Shown piece after piece: positions 24,067 through 53,666 of a stretch of DNA of 64,000 nt. The stretch is from a bacterium (GTDB lineage Archaea > Thermoplasmatota > E2 > JACPAO01 > JAHFTW01). Within the stretch, counting starts at the first letter, position 1; each line of letters opens with the position of its first letter. The DNA lies in the NCBI GenBank assembly GCA_040390065.1, contig JAZJZE010000001.1, positions 1-64,000 of the forward strand, read 5' to 3'. A program made the translations under genes and the position numbers. The notes under the pieces are model-generated. The model ran no database searches. It was not told the origin of the DNA and saw only the letters and a list, made by a program, of their open reading frames with translations.

Positions 24067-25536
<1,470 letters not shown>

Positions 25537-44310: not shown

Positions 44311-45288
44311 TTAGAACCCGAGCGTGATCTTTCCGCCCTTCTTCAGCTCGTCCAGCGCCTTCTCCTTGTAGCGGTCGATGGCGTTCGGGTCGGAGACGTT
44401 GCGGCGGGCCGTCGTGTTGACCTGCTGGATCTCCTTGCGTTCCGCGTCGAACTGCGCCTTGCGCTCGTTGCGGATGGACATGACCTTCTCGCGCATTTCC
44501 ATGCCCTTGTTGTGGCAGTCGTCGGCCTTCTCCTTGCACGCGACGAATTCGGCGTGCTTCTTGTTGGCTTCCTGGACGAGGACGCGGATCTCTTTCACGC
44601 CGGCGATGAACTTCTCGTGGTGCGCGCTGGCTTCCTTGAGGGCGGCAACGACGTGGCCGTGCTCTTCGTCGGCCTTGGCAAAGAGCGCGTCGATGGAGCC
44701 GTCCGTGTCGGCCATCTCGACCTCGACGGACTTCTGCTTCTTCAGCTCGGATTCCTTCTCCTTGAGTTCGAGCCACAGGTCGCGGATCTTCTCGACCAGG
44801 ACCTTCTCCTTCGACGGGGACATGATGGTGGTCTGCTGCTGCTCGACCATCGCCTGGATGTCATTGCGCAGTTTGCGGACCGTCAGGGGAAGCGAGCGCT
44901 CGACGGCGGCGGCGCCGGCCTTGCCCTTCTTGGCGGCGATGAGCGCCTTGGCCTGGTCCTGGTACGCGTTCCGGAGCTCCTTGTGCTGTCGCATGACCTC
45001 GTTGGCGGCGTCGCGGGCGACTTTGTGCTGCTCGATCTCCTCCGACTTGACGCGGCGGGACTCGTTCAGGAGGTCGCGGTCTGTCCGCGCCTTCTTGGCG
45101 AGTTCGTTCATCTCGTTGCGCGTGTCCAAGAGGGAGTTGAACTTGGCTTGCAGGTTGCGCACGTCGGCCTCGCCCAGCGGCGCGGCAGGTGCGGCGTCCG
45201 CGGGGGCTGTTGCGGCGGCGGGGGCGGCAGGGGCGGCCTTCTTCTCGGGGGCGGTCGTGGTCTGGCCTGGGGCCTCTGCAGCGGTCAT
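44311..45288 (-). CDS. Archaeal coiled-coil protein (COG1340-like)
   Basis: Long heptad K/E-rich sequence, QQT..MS..KEK.LV, C-terminal KGGKITL. Confidence 0.8.
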   Translation of the reverse strand: MTAAEAPGQTTTAPEKKAAPAAPAAATAPADAAPAAPLGEADVRNLQAKFNSLLDTRNEMNELAKKARTDRDLLNESRRVKSEEIEQHKVARDAANEVMRQHKELRNAYQDQAKALIAAKKGKAGAAAVERSLPLTVRKLRNDIQAMVEQQQTTIMSPSKEKVLVEKIRDLWLELKEKESELKKQKSVEVEMADTDGSIDALFAKADEEHGHVVAALKEASAHHEKFIAGVKEIRVLVQEANKKHAEFVACKEKADDCHNKGMEMREKVMSIRNERKAQFDAERKEIQQVNTTARRNVSDPNAIDRYKEKALDELKKGGKITLGF

Positions 45289-45393
45289 CGTGCGTCAATC
45301 CTGCCCAGGGGTTTCCCACTGGGCAATCCTGGCCCAGGAAAAGCCCCGTTTAAAGGCTGCGTTCGAGGTACCCCGAGCGGCGCGGCGCCGTGC

Positions 45394-47229
45394 TCACGCG
45401 AGAAACACTTGCACTTTGACCTGGTTCTTGCCGGCGCCCGCCGTCCACGGCAGCAGGGCGCTCTTCTGCCCCTTGGCGGGGACGTCGATGCGTTGTTCGA
45501 GGGTCGGCTTGCCGTCGAGGAGGAGGACGACGCGTAGCGTGGCCGGGATGCCGCCCGCGTTGTGGATTGTCGCCGTCGTCGTGACCGTCGCCCCCGGCCG
45601 AGGCGCGGCGGGGTCGTGGCGGACCTCCGCAAGTTGGATGTCGCGCGCGCTTGCGTAGCCCGTGTGGGCTGCGGCCTCGACGGTGACCTTGACGTGTGCG
45701 CGGTGGGCCGGATGCTCGGCGCCCTGGCTGTCGAGGGGCACCACGTCGAACTCAACGGTCTCGCGCTCCTTGCTGGCGGCGTCCGCCGGGACCTGGATGC
45801 GCAGTGTCCCCGACACCGGGCCCGGCGTGTCGCCGCCGAGAGCCATGTCGACGGGCGTCCCGGGGTCGACGCGTTCGCTGCGACCCATCTGCAGGCCGGC
45901 GCGCCAAGACCGGCCTTCGCCGCGCAGGGTGCCGCGGGCCATGAATGTCCGCTTGCGGCGAGGTGTGAGTTCGACCTTGAACTCGGCGGTGCCGCCCGGC
46001 GCCATGACGACGCGCTTGGGCGTCACTTGGAGCCGGACCCAGGGGTTTCGCGTCAGGAACATGATGAGGTAGACGGCGACGATGGCGACGAGGAGGAATG
46101 CCGCGAGAAGTGCAAGTTCGGCGAAGTCGCCCAGCGGCTTGTCGAGGCCCATCCCCTTGGCAAGCGGTGTCAGGAACCCGAGTTGTTCGGGCACGGGCGT
46201 GCGCGTCGTGGGCGGTGGCGGCGTCGGATGCGACAAGTCGACGATCGTGCGCGCTTCCACGGTGGCGGCCCCGCCGCGCGTGCTCGTGGCCTGCACTTGG
46301 ACGTCGAGGTTGCCGCCCGGATGGTTATGCAATGTGAGCGTGAGGGTGAGCGTGCCTTTCGCGCCGTGCCCCAGGCTCAAGGTGGTGCGGTCGAGGACGG
46401 GTTGGCCGAAGGACGGTTGGTTGGCGATGCCGAAGTTGACGGTGTCGGCGTCCGTGCCGCTGTTCGTGGCTTCGATGTGGAAGACGATGCTGGCGTTGCC
46501 GTCATGGACGGTCACCTGGCGGCCCGAGAATGCGTCGTCCTCGAACGTGTTGGGGCACGAACCCGTGGGCGGGCACGTCGTGTGCTGGTGCACGGAGCCG
46601 CCCGTGATCGTCACCTGCAGGCCGGCCTGGATGGCGGTGCGCGGGATGGTAAACGGCCCGGCCACGCCGGAATCCGGTGCCAAGTCCGTGCCAGTCGTGT
46701 CGTCCTGCGTGACCGCGCCAGGCGCGCTGCCTGGATCTGTGTCCTGCGTCGAGACCGTGAAGTTGCCGAGCTGGTCCCCACCGACGGCCCCGACGGCCAC
46801 AAGCGGCATGGTGACGGCGAGGTTGGTGCCTTGCGCCTGGGAACGTGCGCCCGTGACGCCGCTCACAACGCCGTTCAGGACCGAAAGTGTGTACGCCGCC
46901 CCTTGCGCCGTGCTGGACTCGAGACTCGTCGGGCCGTGCGAGACGGTGAAGTGGAGGGTGACGGTCTCGCTGGCCGTGACCGCGGCCGTCGTCGCCACCG
47001 TCAACGTGAGGTTGCCGAGCGCCACGTCGCCCGTCAAGCGCAGGATGTCCGTCTGCGCCATCGACGGCGGCTGGACGGCAAGCGGTCCCGGCGTCACGGC
47101 TTGGTCGCCGGGGGGATCCGTCACGATGGGCGGGCAGCCGCCGGGGCACGCCGTCTGGGCGCTTGCCGGGGCAAGGGTGGCCAGTAGCACTCCCAGGCCC
47201 AACCCAAGCGCAAGCAGGCTCCTCCGCAT
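45394..47229 (-). CDS. Single-pass membrane protein with Ig-like/CARDB-like domains
   Basis: Signal peptide, T-rich beta domains, central TM, C-terminal ATIHNAG...WTAGAG. Confidence 0.75.
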   Translation of the reverse strand: MRRSLLALGLGLGVLLATLAPASAQTACPGGCPPIVTDPPGDQAVTPGPLAVQPPSMAQTDILRLTGDVALGNLTLTVATTAAVTASETVTLHFTVSHGPTSLESSTAQGAAYTLSVLNGVVSGVTGARSQAQGTNLAVTMPLVAVGAVGGDQLGNFTVSTQDTDPGSAPGAVTQDDTTGTDLAPDSGVAGPFTIPRTAIQAGLQVTITGGSVHQHTTCPPTGSCPNTFEDDAFSGRQVTVHDGNASIVFHIEATNSGTDADTVNFGIANQPSFGQPVLDRTTLSLGHGAKGTLTLTLTLHNHPGGNLDVQVQATSTRGGAATVEARTIVDLSHPTPPPPTTRTPVPEQLGFLTPLAKGMGLDKPLGDFAELALLAAFLLVAIVAVYLIMFLTRNPWVRLQVTPKRVVMAPGGTAEFKVELTPRRKRTFMARGTLRGEGRSWRAGLQMGRSERVDPGTPVDMALGGDTPGPVSGTLRIQVPADAASKERETVEFDVVPLDSQGAEHPAHRAHVKVTVEAAAHTGYASARDIQLAEVRHDPAAPRPGATVTTTATIHNAGGIPATLRVVLLLDGKPTLEQRIDVPAKGQKSALLPWTAGAGKNQVKVQVFLA

Positions 47230-47292
47230 CCAATCCCAGGGTGGCCGACTGCCATATAAATATTAAAAGCCGACCGCCTTGCGCCAACCAGC

Positions 47293-47571
47293 ATGGCCGA
47301 CGCGGAACTCACCAAACGCCTCGTCAAGATCCTGACCGAGCTCGAGGAGCGCTTCGCCCAGGGCACGATGAGCCTGCGCGAGATGACGGCCCTCGTCGAG
47401 AAAGAGAAGATCCCGCACCTCGATGGATACCTGCGCCGCGCCGGCGCCCTCGACTACCAATCCCCGAAGCGTTTCTTCCAGGCCGGCCCCGACCTGAAGA
47501 GCGTGCGCGACGCCCTCAAGAAGGGCAAAGTCCCGCGCGGCCTCGAAGGCCTTCTCGGCAGTGCCACGTAG
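47293..47571 (+). CDS. Hypothetical protein (92 aa)
   Basis: Strong host codon bias; TATA attaaaag about 30 nt upstream. Confidence 0.7.
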   Translation: MADAELTKRLVKILTELEERFAQGTMSLREMTALVEKEKIPHLDGYLRRAGALDYQSPKRFFQAGPDLKSVRDALKKGKVPRGLEGLLGSAT

Positions 47572-47635
47572 AGCAGCACCGTCGCTTCAACGACACCGCT
47601 AGGTTCCTTATCCAACCCTGCCCGGGTGCCCCAAC

Positions 47636-48166
47636 GTGCAGAGGGTCGTCCTTCTCCTCGCCGCGGCCATCCTTGCCGGCTGCGCTGCGCCGCAACCCTC
47701 AGTCCCAACGCCCGAACTCCAGCGCCACTCCGAGCCCGTCGACGCCACCGTGACCGTTCGCCACTTCAACGGCACGTTCGACCTCGCCCTGTGGCAGGTT
47801 GCGGCCGATCGCATGGCGGTCGCCCGCAGCGGACCAAACTGCGTGGGCCTCGACGCGGCAGACATCCTCGTAGGCCGGGCCACCGTCCGGTGGACGCCGA
47901 CCGTGCCGGCCACGCCGATGGAACTCGTCCTGGCCGACGAAGGGACCCTGCATGGTCTGGCGACGGGAACGGGCACCATCACGCTCAACATCCGCGCCTT
48001 CAACGAGACCGGGGCGCGTTTCGAGCCGCTTCTGGCTTGGCAGATCAGCGCCGACCGGCCGGCTGGGGTCGTCGACGAGCATGGCGTGCTCGAGCTGGAT
48101 TTCGATTATCGGGCCTCCCGCGACGCGCATCCCGCCACGGGCGGCGGCTGCGCGGTCTATCACTAG
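47636..48166 (+). CDS. Putative lipoprotein
   Basis: Lipobox ILAGC after a hydrophobic stretch. Confidence 0.7.
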   Translation: MQRVVLLLAAAILAGCAAPQPSVPTPELQRHSEPVDATVTVRHFNGTFDLALWQVAADRMAVARSGPNCVGLDAADILVGRATVRWTPTVPATPMELVLADEGTLHGLATGTGTITLNIRAFNETGARFEPLLAWQISADRPAGVVDEHGVLELDFDYRASRDAHPATGGGCAVYH

Positions 48167-48169
48167 GTG

Positions 48170-48541
48170 TTATGCGCAGCAGACCGACTGCTCTCCATGC
48201 GCGCTGGCCCACTCCATCAATGGAGCAACTGCGGCAAGCAGTCGCCGGCCCTTCGCCGTGAGCGAGTACTCGACGCGGGGCGGGACTTCGGCGAAGGCGT
48301 GGCGGGTGACGATGCCGTGCGTTTGCAGGGCCGCAAGCGTGTCCGAGAGGGTCTTCGGGCTGACGCCTTCGAGCTCCTGCTGCAGGCGGTTGAAGCGGAC
48401 GGGTTCGCGGTTGCCGATCGTGGCGACGAGGCAGAGCGTCCACTTCTTGCCGATGAGTTCGATGACGCCGTCCGTCGGGCAGGCGCAGGTCGGGAGTTTC
48501 GTGAGTTGGCGTGCCACTTCAGGGTGGGGAAGTTCCTTCAT
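48170..48541 (-). CDS. HxlR-family winged-helix regulator
   Basis: CP...IGKKW, RFNRL, VSPKTLS, PPRVEYSLT.KG; ends VCCA. Confidence 0.92.
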   Translation of the reverse strand: MKELPHPEVARQLTKLPTCACPTDGVIELIGKKWTLCLVATIGNREPVRFNRLQQELEGVSPKTLSDTLAALQTHGIVTRHAFAEVPPRVEYSLTAKGRRLLAAVAPLMEWASAHGEQSVCCA

Positions 48542-48542
48542 C

Positions 48543-48565
48543 ACTTCAAACTTTGTAGTATAAGG
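48543..48565. promoter_or_regulatory. Near-palindromic operator and overlapping divergent TATA
   Basis: acttcaaa-c-tttgtagt (1 mismatch) abutting gtataagg. Confidence 0.55.
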
Positions 48566-48599
48566 CTCCGACCGACATGCATGCCTTCGGAGGTGACCC

Positions 48600-48641
48600 A
48601 TGATCGGACCCGGTGACTGCTGCGGCGGCTTGTGCTGCTGA
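48600..48641 (+). CDS. 13-aa Cys-rich micropeptide MIGPGDCCGGLCC
   Basis: SD GGAGGTGA (48589-48596) complementary to this genome's 16S tail, TATA upstream, pyrimidine tract downstream. Confidence 0.65.
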   Translation: MIGPGDCCGGLCC

Positions 48642-48686
48642 TCGTTGAATACGGTCCTTTTCCTTTCTTCCCCGCCTGCCGCCGCG

Positions 48687-48763
48687 GGTCAACAGATAGA
48701 ACAGATGAAACCGATGCCCGATCACGCTGCCCATATCGGTTCAATCTGTTTCATCTGTTGACC
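48687..48763. repeat. Palindromic element with 3x9-bp arms
   Basis: ggtc-aacagatag-aacagatga-aaccgat ... atcggtt-caatctgtt-tcatctgtt-gacc. Confidence 0.85.
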
Positions 48764-48969
48764 GTCCGGCCATGGCAAGGCAAACCGCTAAGCGTCCACG
48801 CACCATCCCAAGCTTGCCGGTCTGACCCCCGGCCCCGGCGGCGCCACGTTTTCCCGGTCCGCTGGCTGCCCCCCAGAGCGCCTTGCGGCGTGCGGGGGGC
48901 TTCAATCCCTTTCACCCGATTTTTCGCACCGGACGCAACGGCTATGCCGGCCGCCCGGTCTCGACGCGC

Positions 48970-49461
48970 GTGCTTCGCGGCGTTCCCATCGCGTTCCTGC
49001 TCGCCGTCGTCCTCGCCGGCTGCGCGTCGTCTAGTCCGCCGACGTCCAACCCGCCTGCAACCGCATGTGACGAATCGCTATGGGACCACGTCTACCACCC
49101 CGATCGCCTGAAAGACCCCGACCCCGCCGTCCACCACAAGTGCCTGACCGTGACCGGGACGGTGCGCAACGTCCTGCACGAGGCCGACGGCGACGACCAC
49201 ATCCGTCTGCACGTCGACGCCGGCTTCGAGGGCCTTCTCAACGACAAGAACCGCTCGGAACAACAGGGTGACCTCGTGGTCGAACCCATGTGCGTCGGCA
49301 CCGTCACGCAAGACGACGCGAAGGACGCATGCAGCACCTTCCACAACCAGGTCACGATCCCCAGGATCGGCGACCACGTCACCGTCGTCGGCGTGCACGT
49401 CCTCGACAACCAGCACGGCTGGATGGAACTCCACCCAGTGACCAGCATCACGGTCGGCTAG
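48970..49461 (+). CDS. Putative lipoprotein with OB-fold-like His-rich domain
   Basis: VLAGC lipobox; YHPDRL, EADGDDH, HGWMELHPV. Confidence 0.75.
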   Translation: MLRGVPIAFLLAVVLAGCASSSPPTSNPPATACDESLWDHVYHPDRLKDPDPAVHHKCLTVTGTVRNVLHEADGDDHIRLHVDAGFEGLLNDKNRSEQQGDLVVEPMCVGTVTQDDAKDACSTFHNQVTIPRIGDHVTVVGVHVLDNQHGWMELHPVTSITVG

Positions 49462-50039
49462 ACCGCCTGCTGCGCCTTCTCGCCATGGCCCGTCGAAAGC
49501 CCCTGCAGGCCGGCCGCAAAGCCCCCAAGCCAGGCCAGGTCGTTGCGCTGCGGCACCGACATGCCGTCACCGATCACGAATTCCGTCGCCTCGATTGCGC
49601 CGCGCTGCAAGAACTCGCGCCGCGACATCGCATCCGCCTGCGGGTAGGCCGAGACGATGAGCTGCGCCTCGATCCAACCGGCGTCGCTCAGGTGCTTGAG
49701 AAGGCGCGTGTCGGCGTCGTGCACCTGCGGGTCCAGCGTCTCCATCCACGCCGCGTAGATGCTCGCAAGCGCCCGCGCCCCAGCCAGCCCATCGCCAAAC
49801 GCGTCGACGGCGTCGCGGCCGAGTTCCAGGAACGCACCCCGCAGCGACTTGACCATCGTCGGCGCCGCAAGCTTGGCACCGCCGCCGAGGCTGGTGCGCA
49901 ACTGCTCGTGGAACAACCGGGACGCCCGCGGCCGGACGTCGGAGACGTGGCGGTCGATGGCCGACGGTGTCCGCCGGCCCCGGTCGGAGAGCCGCTTTGC
50001 CGTAGCCGACCGTTGCCCCGGTGCGTGTGTCTGGGTCAC
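49458..50039 (-). CDS. Hypothetical protein
   Basis: Host-like ORF with TATA-like ttaagg upstream; no recognised motif. Confidence 0.55.
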
Positions 50040-50340
50040 GGCCCGACTGTGCGCTGGACGGACCTTAACGGCACATGACCGCGGCAAAGCCGCCCCGTCC
50101 CCGCGGATTCCTCGGCCCGTGATTCCCCTCCACGCCTGGGAAAGGCTCATGTCCCGCCCAACCCTGCCTTCGCCTGAGCAGATTCCGGGCAGCCGGAATG
50201 GCGGATGCGTCCCCTGGATGGTCCGCGGCGACTCCGTTTTCTTAGCAAGCCTGCGCTTCCCTCGGTGGGAACAGTTTATATCCGTCCCTTCCTGCGCGAC
50301 CTTGCGGCCGCCGGCATCAGCCTGTGGCCTAGGTGAAAGC

Positions 50341-50532
50341 GTGGACTACACCCGTTTCGAGAAAGCCCGCATCGTCGGCGCCCGCGCCCTGCAACTCTCC
50401 ATGGGGGCCCCGCCCCTCATCGAGACCCCGGCGGACGTGCGCAACCCGGTGCGCGTCGCCATGCTCGAATACGAGGCCAGTGCCATCCCGCTCACCGTCA
50501 AGCGCAGTGCAACACACCAGGTGAAACAGTGA
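50341..50532 (+). CDS. rpoK: RNA polymerase subunit K (Rpo6)
   Basis: [22 protein letters not shown]. Confidence 0.95.
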
Positions 50533-51179
50533 GCGACGAGACTTTCCTAGACCCCCAGCAGACCGCCTCCAGCGCGCCGCCGGGAACCGAACTCCTGGTC
50601 CCCGAAGAGGAATACCTCACCTCGGGCGTCCACATCGGCACGCAGCACAAGACGGCCGACATGAAGCCGTACATCTTCCGCGTCCGCAACGACGGCCTCT
50701 TCGTCCTCGACGTCGCCAAGACGGACTCCGCCCTGCGCGCCGCCGCCCAGATGATCTCCAAGTACGACCCGAAGCGCGTCCTCTTCGTGAGCCAGCGCCA
50801 GTACGGCCAGAAGCCCGTGAAGGAGTGCGCAAAGGCCGTCGGGGCCACCGCCATCGCCGGCCGCTTCATGCCGGGCAGCCTCACCAACCCCATCACGCCC
50901 AACTTCATGGAACCCGAGATCCTCATCCTGACGGACCCCCTCGGCGACGCGCAAGCCATGCGCGAATCCATGAACATCAAGATCCCCATCCTGGGCCTCG
51001 TCGACTCCAACAACGAGACGAAGAACCTCGACATCGTCATCCCGGCCAACAACAAGGGCCGCCGCAGCCTCGCCATCATCTACTGGCTGCTCGCACGCGA
51101 GATCCTCCTCGTGCGCGGCGACATCAAGGACCGCTCGGAATTCACGAAGAGCGTCGACGACTTCGAAGCGTCGCTCTAG
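50529..51179 (+). CDS. rps2: 30S ribosomal protein uS2
   Basis: [25 protein letters not shown]. Confidence 0.97.
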
Positions 51180-51208
51180 TCGCTCGCGCCGTGCCACGGG
51201 CCACCTGC

Positions 51209-51307
51209 GGCGGCGTTGCTTGCCCGCAGGCGTCGTCAGGCTCCGTTGCCGTGGCCTCCAGCCACGCCTCCGTCGCCTTCCTAGCCTGCGGCCAAGCATC
51301 GGCCGCC
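51209..51307. repeat. About 100-nt imperfect REP-like palindrome after rps2
   Basis: ggcggc..tgcttg.ccgcaggc...cgtggc-ctcca-gccacg...gcctgcgg.caagca..gccgcc. Confidence 0.65.
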
Positions 51308-51491
51308 TCGGTTCCGGCCCGCGCCTGACGCGAGCTCCCAGAGCGCCGCCGCCCGATTGCTCCCGGGTGACGCCGGGCGACCCGTTCGGTTCTTGCCCCC
51401 GTGCAAGGCGGCCGACTCGCGCCCGCCCTGTTCGATTGGCCGTCGCGCCTCCCATCCCCTTAAAAAACGGCCTTGCCTCGCGCAGCCTGAG

Positions 51492-53666
<2,175 letters not shown>

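Follow-up and report, generated by a model that had tools for sequence, protein, structure and literature searches.

The first 64,000 nucleotides (nt) of contig JAZJZE010000001.1 (GenBank assembly GCA_040390065.1) stem from an archaeon of the phylum Thermoplasmatota and are here called the window. They contain a gene for a winged-helix regulator of the HxlR family and, divergent from it, an open reading frame (ORF) of only 13 codons, the micro-ORF. The encoded peptide, (M)IGPGDCCGGLCC when written after its initiator methionine, has cysteine at four of its 13 positions, a high content of the kind seen in bacterial metallothioneins. Judged by its conservation in related genomes, the micro-ORF is very probably a real coding gene, which would be translated from a monocistronic message. 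On balance we also favour the view that regulator and micropeptide form a self-contained stress module of a sensor and a thiol peptide, working by the mechanism proposed below. An initial annotation had claimed a 13-residue CC-x3-CC peptide opposite the regulator. An ORF for it is indeed there (Table 1); the numbering of its elements was off by one base and has been refined by re-reading the sequence.

Table 1. Positions of the module and of neighbouring or related features in the window
Feature	Position	Strand	Remarks
HxlR-family winged-helix regulator	48170-48541	-	123 amino acids (aa) if the start is ATG 48541
Imperfect inverted repeat ACTTCAAACTTTGTAGT	48543-48559		8-1-8; 7 of 8 positions complementary
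TATA-like hexamer TATAAG	48559-48564	+	Presumed archaeal promoter element of the micro-gene
Shine-Dalgarno sequence GGAGGTGA	48589-48596	+	8 nt, 3 nt 5' of ATG
Micro-ORF	48600-48641	+	ATG 48600, TGA 48639-48641; 13 codons + stop; peptide MIGPGDCCGGLCC
Weak hairpin + C/T-rich tract	48640-48673	+	Presumed transcript end; stem 48640-48656
ORF of 159 aa	48632-49111	+	Overlaps the end of the micro-ORF; judged spurious
Palindromic element	48687-48763		77 nt; 29-nt arms, 86% complementary; 19-nt loop
Predicted lipoprotein	47636-48166		Lipobox-like LAGC; no Pfam match
Predicted lipoprotein	48883-49461		Lipobox-like LAGC; no Pfam match
16S rRNA gene	24067-25536		Complete; RF01959, archaeal SSU model, 1451 bits

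The micro-ORF and its conservation

The window belongs to a 2.68-Mb assembly with 66.8% G+C (G000). Orthologs of its regulator were searched for in 38 species genomes of the order, which are 65-94% complete, at an E-value of 1e-28 or better. They occur in seven of the 13 genomes of the window's genus, G000 included, and in none of the 25 from other genera. The seven HxlR proteins are 51-70% identical, and every one of them is faced by a divergent ORF of 11-13 codons with exactly four cysteines and a Cys-Cys-stop ending. The orthologous peptides read MGPGEGCCGGFCC, MDPGCGCGPYCC, MDPGCGCGPFCC, MGPDCPCTGCC, MGPECPCGDFCC and MTGPGDCCGGFCC, the last one with a TTG start. All seven retain the reading frame, both ends, a proline and the Cys count; one Cys changes its position between two types of the peptide, and the total stays at four. 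The stop codon directly behind Cys-Cys differs by species (TGA, TAA or TAG), the differences in length are whole codons, and an invariant GGAGGT precedes the start codon by 5-8 nt at all loci. The mean nucleotide identity is 0.74 within the ORF, 0.32 in the spacer between promoter and Shine-Dalgarno sequence (SD) and 0.34 in the 42 nt after the stop. In the close pair G003/G011, three synonymous changes in the micro-ORF stand against one non-synonymous change.

Two checks had been proposed with the initial annotation. Conservation of a short Cys-rich ORF opposite homologous regulators was one of them; it was found at 7/7 orthologous loci and at 0/22 paralogous ones, where the regulators share 34-46% identity and no ORF of up to 30 aa with at least three cysteines lies in the 400 nt upstream. 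The other was whether the micro-ORF might be the stub of a longer gene. It is not: the Cys-Cys-stop ending with its three different stop codons and the lack of a coiled-coil remnant rule out a recently truncated longer gene. In a tblastn search with seven of the longer coiled-coil partners that are described below, no remnant was detected downstream of the micro-ORFs (E about 1 or worse), and only the N-terminal CGCG motifs of these proteins showed a faint similarity to the micro-ORFs themselves (E 0.25). Within G000, 79 ORFs of 8-20 codons start 3-11 nt after a GGAGGT, and the micro-ORF is the only one with four or more Cys codons.

The signals around the micro-ORF are largely as had been claimed. 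The SD is a perfect complement of TCACCTCC, which belongs to the 3' terminus of the window's own 16S gene (...GGATCACCTCCT, 25525-25536). An in-frame TGA (48594-48596) lies inside the SD, 3 nt 5' of the ATG, and closes the frame, so that the micro-ORF cannot be extended upstream. The TATA element, the near-palindromic operator and the pyrimidine tract are all present as well, and transcription would start a few nt 5' of the SD. The C/T tract after the hairpin (TCCTTTTCCTTTCTTCCCC, 48655-48673) is preceded by a stem, and a scan for terminator-like sites lists this stem followed by CTTTTCCTTT; shuffled sequence, however, averages 1.0 such site per region, which makes hairpin and tract weak evidence if taken alone. 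Pyrimidine-rich tracts follow the stop at 7/7 loci; the one in G007 is the antisense of the last codons of a convergent ArsC-like gene. The transcript region of 95 nt (48586-48680) folds no better than its shuffles (z -0.10). An Rfam scan yielded no family above threshold; mir-3136 reached 26.7 of 86 bits, on the palindromic repeat, and osmY 23.7 of 46.9 bits. A scan for sigma-70 promoters gave no site, as expected in an archaeon. The archaeal nature of the host is evident from the 16S gene and from the genes for an Rpb6-type RNA polymerase subunit and ribosomal protein S2, which are found 2 kb downstream.

The two predicted lipoproteins listed in Table 1 flank the module. The 159-aa ORF was judged by inspection to be spurious, because it traverses the palindromic repeat and shares sequence, in another frame, with the second of these lipoprotein ORFs, which has a signal peptide and a lipobox. 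The palindromic element just 3' of the micro-gene has 23 more matches in G000 at an E-value of 0.001 or better, some of them being both strands of one place. Copies are seen on contigs C1, C3, C5, C6, C8, C9, C11, C13 and C17, among others, and G004 carries a similar palindrome at the same position. It looks like a REP- or MITE-like family of intergenic repeats.

The regulator, its predicted operator and its neighbours

The regulator matches PF01638 with 80.7 bits (cut-off 20.8 bits, E 7.3e-23) over profile positions 1-89 of 91; the Pfam scan gave no HTH_5 (ArsR-type) match for it. GTG 48517 is an alternative start, which agrees with the shorter N-termini of the orthologs. As initially annotated, Cys-Ala-Cys is found near the N-terminus (C19-A-C21, a CxC motif) and the protein ends in CCA, more fully VCCA; a further cysteine is C37. 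C19 and C21 are invariant in 7/7 aligned orthologs, and a C-terminal cysteine is present in 6/7. C21-P22 aligns to the Cys-Pro (CP) of the solved family members 2fsw and 1yyv; the structure matches also include HxlR (7bze) of Bacillus subtilis, YodB (5hs7) and QsrR (4hqe). In characterised members of the family, the CP cysteine before helix 1 is the sensing thiol. C19 and the C-terminal cysteine are additions specific to the archaeal CxC clade.

The inverted repeat consists of the halves ACTTCAAA-C-TTTGTAGT. It abuts the HxlR start and overlaps the TATA-like element, in an intergenic region that measures 58 nt if HxlR starts at ATG 48541. The repeat is kept in 7/7 genus loci, and the same holds for an A/T-rich hexamer at the same position (TATAAG, CTTAAG, CTTTAG or TATTAG). 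Six of the loci have 33 nt between operator core and SD and the seventh has 34 nt, although the identity of the spacer averages only 32%. The repeat is the predicted operator of HxlR. A 23-nt operator/TATA matrix, built from the genus sites, finds one strong match in G000, its own site with 41.7 bits. The runner-up, GACTTCACTCTTTGAAGCACTAG at C1:95953, scores 21.4 bits. The uniqueness of the operator in G000 makes the micro-gene look like the only target of the regulator besides the regulator itself. The consensus ACTACAAANTTTGTAGT, with up to four mismatches, was found upstream of 37/66 HxlR genes of the CxC type versus 6/121 other HxlR genes. That a thiol-based HxlR protein controls the divergent gene, as was presumed from the outset, accords with the alignment of C21 to the CP cysteine, with the conserved palindrome and with the fixed spacing between operator and SD; the control as such may be considered plausible.

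Within the single genus the pair has at least four different surroundings. In G000 and G004 it is flanked by a 92-aa gene and rpo6, and in G003 and G011 its neighbour is RNase HII; an ArsC-like and a MIP channel gene stand tail-to-tail with it in G002 and G007, and in G010 it adjoins a lipoprotein with BNR repeats. The interval from the 92-aa gene to rpo6 lacks the pair in G002 and G005. All this suggests a mobile two-gene unit. The content of this interval also differs between species of the genus. The gene after the micro-ORF, be it RNase HII, the ArsC-like gene, the BNR lipoprotein or a 197-aa gene, is convergent in 6/7 loci, which is why the micro-gene is considered monocistronic.

MIP and ArsC-like genes adjoin the pair in three of the seven genus genomes, in two different arrangements. 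The ArsC-like gene encodes an LMW-PTP with best matches to arsenate-reductase models. Both neighbours are either convergent or located beyond HxlR and have no second operator; nor did the matrix search reveal a second site beside them in the fetched loci. In G000, tblastn with the proteins of relatives detected no ArsA, ACR3 or ArsD, only one distant ArsA-like P-loop match, and no gene of cysteine metabolism adjoins the module.

Relatives in other archaea

Scanning genome and metagenome collections with the HxlR alignment yielded 160 loci. Sixty-one of them come from other archaea and display the CxC motif; the bacterial matches have the usual single CP cysteine. The sources of the CxC loci are Bathyarchaeia, Methanolobus, Methanoperedens, Methanomicrobiales, Thermoplasmata, Nitrososphaerota, Sifarchaeum, Hodarchaeota and metagenome contigs. 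Their divergent partners, classified by reading the loci, are of different kinds. The largest class (29/61) comprises proteins of 49-97 aa with a Cys/His-rich N-terminus and a coiled-coil tail. Cys-rich peptides of 17-54 aa without such a tail, e.g., MDGCECPCGCGCCGPGF, make up 13/61. Five loci have a thiol, redox or arsenic protein in this place. One is ArsD (E 2.5e-26), behind which ArsA (E 2e-149) is encoded; another is an Rdx-family protein, whose gene precedes that of an ACR3 equivalog (411.7 bits; cut-off 282.8 bits) and an ArsC-like gene; two are Thioredoxin_3, and the fifth is FmdE. No clear divergent partner is seen in 14/61, one of which is cut by the contig end.

The coiled-coil partners have 283 relatives in the databases, named "hypothetical" or rarely "DUF5320". 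A gene for an ABC ATPase, recognised by eye from its GPNGAGKTT motif, comes after the small gene, in the same orientation, at 13 loci. The Pfam check made for L046 identified a DrrA-subfamily ATPase and an ABC-2 permease, and the tally of the neighbourhood contains five ABC_tran matches. An operon of mini-protein, DrrA-type ATPase and ABC-2 permease behind the same type of operator is seen in L046, L052, L119, L124, L127 and L129, and likewise in L133, L135-L137, L140, L142 and L158.

Ten more HxlR loci came from 401 sampled genomes of the phylum, namely four with coiled-coil partners, two with peptides of 27-30 aa that start with MCELC and end in a CC pair, two with Rdx proteins ending in CC, and two without CxC. 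The Rdx (SelW-like) proteins divergent from CxC regulators end in ...TEKCC (L201) or ...GSCC (L208), and that of L049 ends in C-N-N-C. With their terminal Cys-Cys, the first two resemble the micropeptide, which ends in CC, and the window's regulator, which ends in VCCA. Yet another unannotated type of Cys-rich partner shows up opposite single-Cys bacterial HxlR proteins in L073, L076, L185 and L189 (Muribaculaceae genomes and metagenome contigs); these small proteins are built from repeated ACGSACGAGDK-like units and have several CxxC pairs.

A maximum-likelihood tree of 80 rows and 97 columns was calculated with Shimodaira-Hasegawa-like approximate likelihood ratio test (SH-aLRT) support only; it excludes rows with stops, matches shorter than 85 aa and all loci from L164 on, and the eight bacterial outgroup rows were chosen by hand. 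The archaeal CxC clade is split from these eight single-Cys rows with a support of 98. The regulators of micro- or short peptides, i.e., those of this genus and of a Bathyarchaeota group, fall outside a clade of 61 rows (support 84) that holds all the coiled-coil partners.

Proposed function and comparison with known systems

The mechanism we propose is as follows. A dimer of HxlR would occupy the palindrome, which overlaps the A/T-rich promoter element common to both genes, and would repress the micro-gene and probably its own gene, too. A thiol-reactive ligand would tie up C19 and C21, at the mouth of helix 1, together with the C-terminal cysteine(s). Most likely this ligand would be arsenite or another soft metal or metalloid, the alternative being an oxidant or electrophile. 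The ligand-bound repressor would leave the DNA, a short SD-led mRNA would be translated into the four-cysteine peptide, and the latter would chelate or buffer that ligand, acting as a genetically encoded metallothionein in miniature or as an analogue of phytochelatins. What the sequences show are the elements of the module, their conservation, the joint inheritance of the two genes and the kinds of genes opposite the regulators of clade relatives; repression, the nature of the inducer, translation, the ends of the transcript and binding by the peptide are what we infer from them.

The peptide would bind the very agent that modifies the sensor. For this agent we put arsenite first; a buffer for oxidants or electrophiles is the main rival. 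A metallothionein-like or thiol-buffering role is suggested by the context of ars genes and by the thiol proteins that occur as partners in the clade. Arsenite or antimonite may be called the leading candidate inducer, because two clade members face the arsD-arsA and rdx-acr3-arsC-like operons and because MIP and ArsC-like genes adjoin the module in 3/7 genus genomes; this is suggestive, not strong. As to arsenite as the specific ligand, the choice is tentative, and we have more doubt than confidence in it.

The rival just mentioned sees in the peptide a redox or electrophile buffer or signal instead of a metal ligand: an inducible thiol that scavenges quinones, aldehydes or oxidants, or S-thiolates proteins, under a switch like YodB or QsrR. 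C21 indeed aligns with the CP cysteine of the family, whose solved members include YodB, QsrR and HxlR of B. subtilis, and YodB also combines an N-terminal with a C-terminal cysteine. Moreover, clade relatives face genes for Thioredoxin_3 (twice), Rdx-family proteins and aldo/keto reductases. The arsenic operons directly opposite two clade members and the MIP and ArsC-like neighbours within the genus, however, speak against it. The extra invariant cysteine also points elsewhere, since ArsR-type sensors typically bind As(III) through three sulfurs, a pattern that a CxC together with one more distant Cys would provide. Finally, a ribosomally made peptide would be a costly stoichiometric scavenger. 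We therefore consider this explanation rather unlikely, yet deserving of attention.

The two remaining alternatives question the role of the peptide or its very existence. The conserved stretch might be an untranslated DNA or RNA element, such as a control region of the regulator or a small non-coding RNA, in which the reading frame is incidental. A low-complexity run of TGC and GGC could be kept at the nucleotide level, the variation among the seven ORFs is not clearly skewed to third positions, and no RNA run is among those listed for the region. This is hardly compatible with the invariant GGAGGT before the start codon, with a stop that always comes right after Cys-Cys in the form of three different codons, with length changes by whole codons only, or with a Cys count fixed at four while one Cys shifts its position. 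Neither unusual RNA structure nor an Rfam family at threshold was seen, and other archaea encode undoubted proteins, those with 283 database relatives, at the same position. The idea is improbable. Even less probable, in fact very much so, is a Cys-sensing leader peptide on which ribosomes stall at scarce Cys-tRNA and thereby control a downstream or overlapping gene. Four Cys codons in 13, arranged as two adjacent pairs, would suit such a device, and Cys-rich small genes head operons with an ABC exporter at many loci of other archaea. A precedent is set by the polycysteine leaderless short ORFs of mycobacteria, which a preprint describes as Cys-responsive attenuators (bioRxiv 10.1101/834739). 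But the convergent next gene in 6/7 genus loci leaves nothing downstream to attenuate, the micro-ORF has a strong SD and is not leaderless, its transcript region folds like shuffled sequence, and G000 has no adjoining gene of cysteine metabolism. Also, a conserved coiled-coil domain marks the longer partners of other archaea as proteins, not mere leaders.

A number of observations weigh against our own proposal, a sensor/thiol-peptide module with arsenite as the preferred ligand. The small gene most often has a DrrA-type ABC exporter, not an arsenic gene, as its neighbour, and many coiled-coil partners are rich in histidine, which suggests other metals. Arsenic genes occur in the fetched flanks of only 4/61 CxC loci and of L153, which falls within the clade on the tree but lacks CxC; the remaining loci contribute one distant ArsA-like match. 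Relatives, besides, do not count as independent observations of this link. In G000 itself the module is 265 kb away from the MIP and ArsC-like genes, where no operator is found. To our knowledge, no HxlR-family member described to date responds to metals; their signals are electrophiles, oxidants or formaldehyde. What the 13-aa peptide has in common with the longer partners is its position alone. Regarding translation, the variable sites over the seven ORFs number 4, 8 and 7 at codon positions 1, 2 and 3, respectively, and pairwise codon differences amount to 41 synonymous versus 81 non-synonymous ones. As the variation is not third-position-skewed and non-synonymous changes outnumber synonymous ones, the central residues appear free to drift; with so weak a codon pattern, the coding argument relies on the kept Cys count, frame, start, stop and SD. 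For window positions 45000-53000 no RNA run was listed; the sole run containing them is of DNA and possibly the source of the assembly. The ligand may differ across the CxC clade.

A broader view can be taken, if only as a possibility that we would not yet defend. The micropeptide could be the smallest gene-encoded metal(loid)-binding peptide so far proposed, with four thiols in 11-13 residues, and be run by the CxC HxlR proteins as a hitherto overlooked class of sensors of arsenite or soft metals that is spread over the archaea. Together with the partners of 17-97 aa, the exporters and the ars operons, it would then belong to a new thiol-peptide detoxification regulon, which could stand in for the chemistry of glutathione, phytochelatins and metallothioneins in Thermoplasmata-like archaea, Bathyarchaeia, methanogens, Nitrososphaerota and Asgard archaea. 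If the proposal is true, archaeal genomes contain functional genes with only about a dozen codons, which gene callers miss, the HxlR family gains a metal(loid)-sensing branch, and there is a candidate answer to the question of how arsenite and other thiophilic toxicants are buffered in archaea that lack glutathione or known metallothioneins. The module is only about 470 bp long, being made of one regulator, an operator and a peptide. It is easily tested and might become a compact biosensor or chelator part. The cultivable methanogen Methanolobus vulcani carries a 57-aa form, which puts the question within reach of experiments.

How does the pair compare with what is known? In the literature outside subscription journals and supplements, we found no account of an HxlR-type sensor of arsenic or metals, of these mini-proteins or of such a pair. 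Among HxlR proteins, YodB, QsrR, HypR and HxlR of B. subtilis share with the regulator in the window the Pfam family and the N-terminal CP cysteine (C21). The family consists of dimeric winged-helix proteins, and in the window a palindromic site lies next to the divergent, presumed target gene. The targets of such thiol-switch HxlR/DUF24 regulators are quinone reductases or nitroreductases; in contrast, the divergent genes of the archaeal clade encode Cys-rich mini-proteins and, in two loci, ars operons, and its regulators have the extra invariant Cys of the CxC motif and a C-terminal Cys or Cys-Cys. ArsD offers another parallel. In a clade relative, the partner begins with MCCSTGVCG, i.e., a vicinal Cys pair followed by a Cys, similar to CCGGLCC here; the micropeptide, however, entirely lacks the thioredoxin-like fold of ArsD, and its regulator is not of the ArsR type.

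At most loci of other archaea, the DUF5320 (PF17253) mini-proteins take the place of the micropeptide: they are encoded divergently from a CxC HxlR gene, with an operator of the same type in front. CxC, CGCG and CC motifs are found in their N-termini, and the long partners match PF17253 just below threshold (25.8 bits against a cut-off of 27 bits). The micro-ORF differs in lacking the coiled-coil part (RRFLTKxEKxExLKxYxxELKKEL-like) and stops directly after Cys-Cys. With the mycobacterial polycysteine ORFs the micro-ORF has in common that it is very short, unannotated and dense in cysteine; it is, by contrast, SD-led and monocistronic and has neither an RNA switch structure nor a link to cysteine metabolism.

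Phytochelatins are thiol-rich peptides of about a dozen residues, too, and chelation of As(III) or Cd would be a presumed common function. They are made enzymatically from glutathione and contain gamma-Glu linkages, whereas the micropeptide would be a ribosomal product under its own transcriptional sensor. A close analogy is the SmtB-SmtA system of Synechococcus, in which the gene of a Cys-rich small product is placed head-to-head with that of a winged-helix Cys sensor, which releases the DNA upon ligand binding. The likeness to this system, and also to mycobacterial MymT, comprises the head-to-head layout, the shared promoter region and the presumed logic of buffering. SmtA and MymT have about 55 aa; the products here have 11-13, are too short for family profiles and show no detectable sequence relation to them, and the regulator is of the HxlR type (PF01638), not of the ArsR/SmtB type. 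The logic, in short, resembles that of SmtB-SmtA; what is new is the family of the regulator, the size of the product and the spread among archaea.

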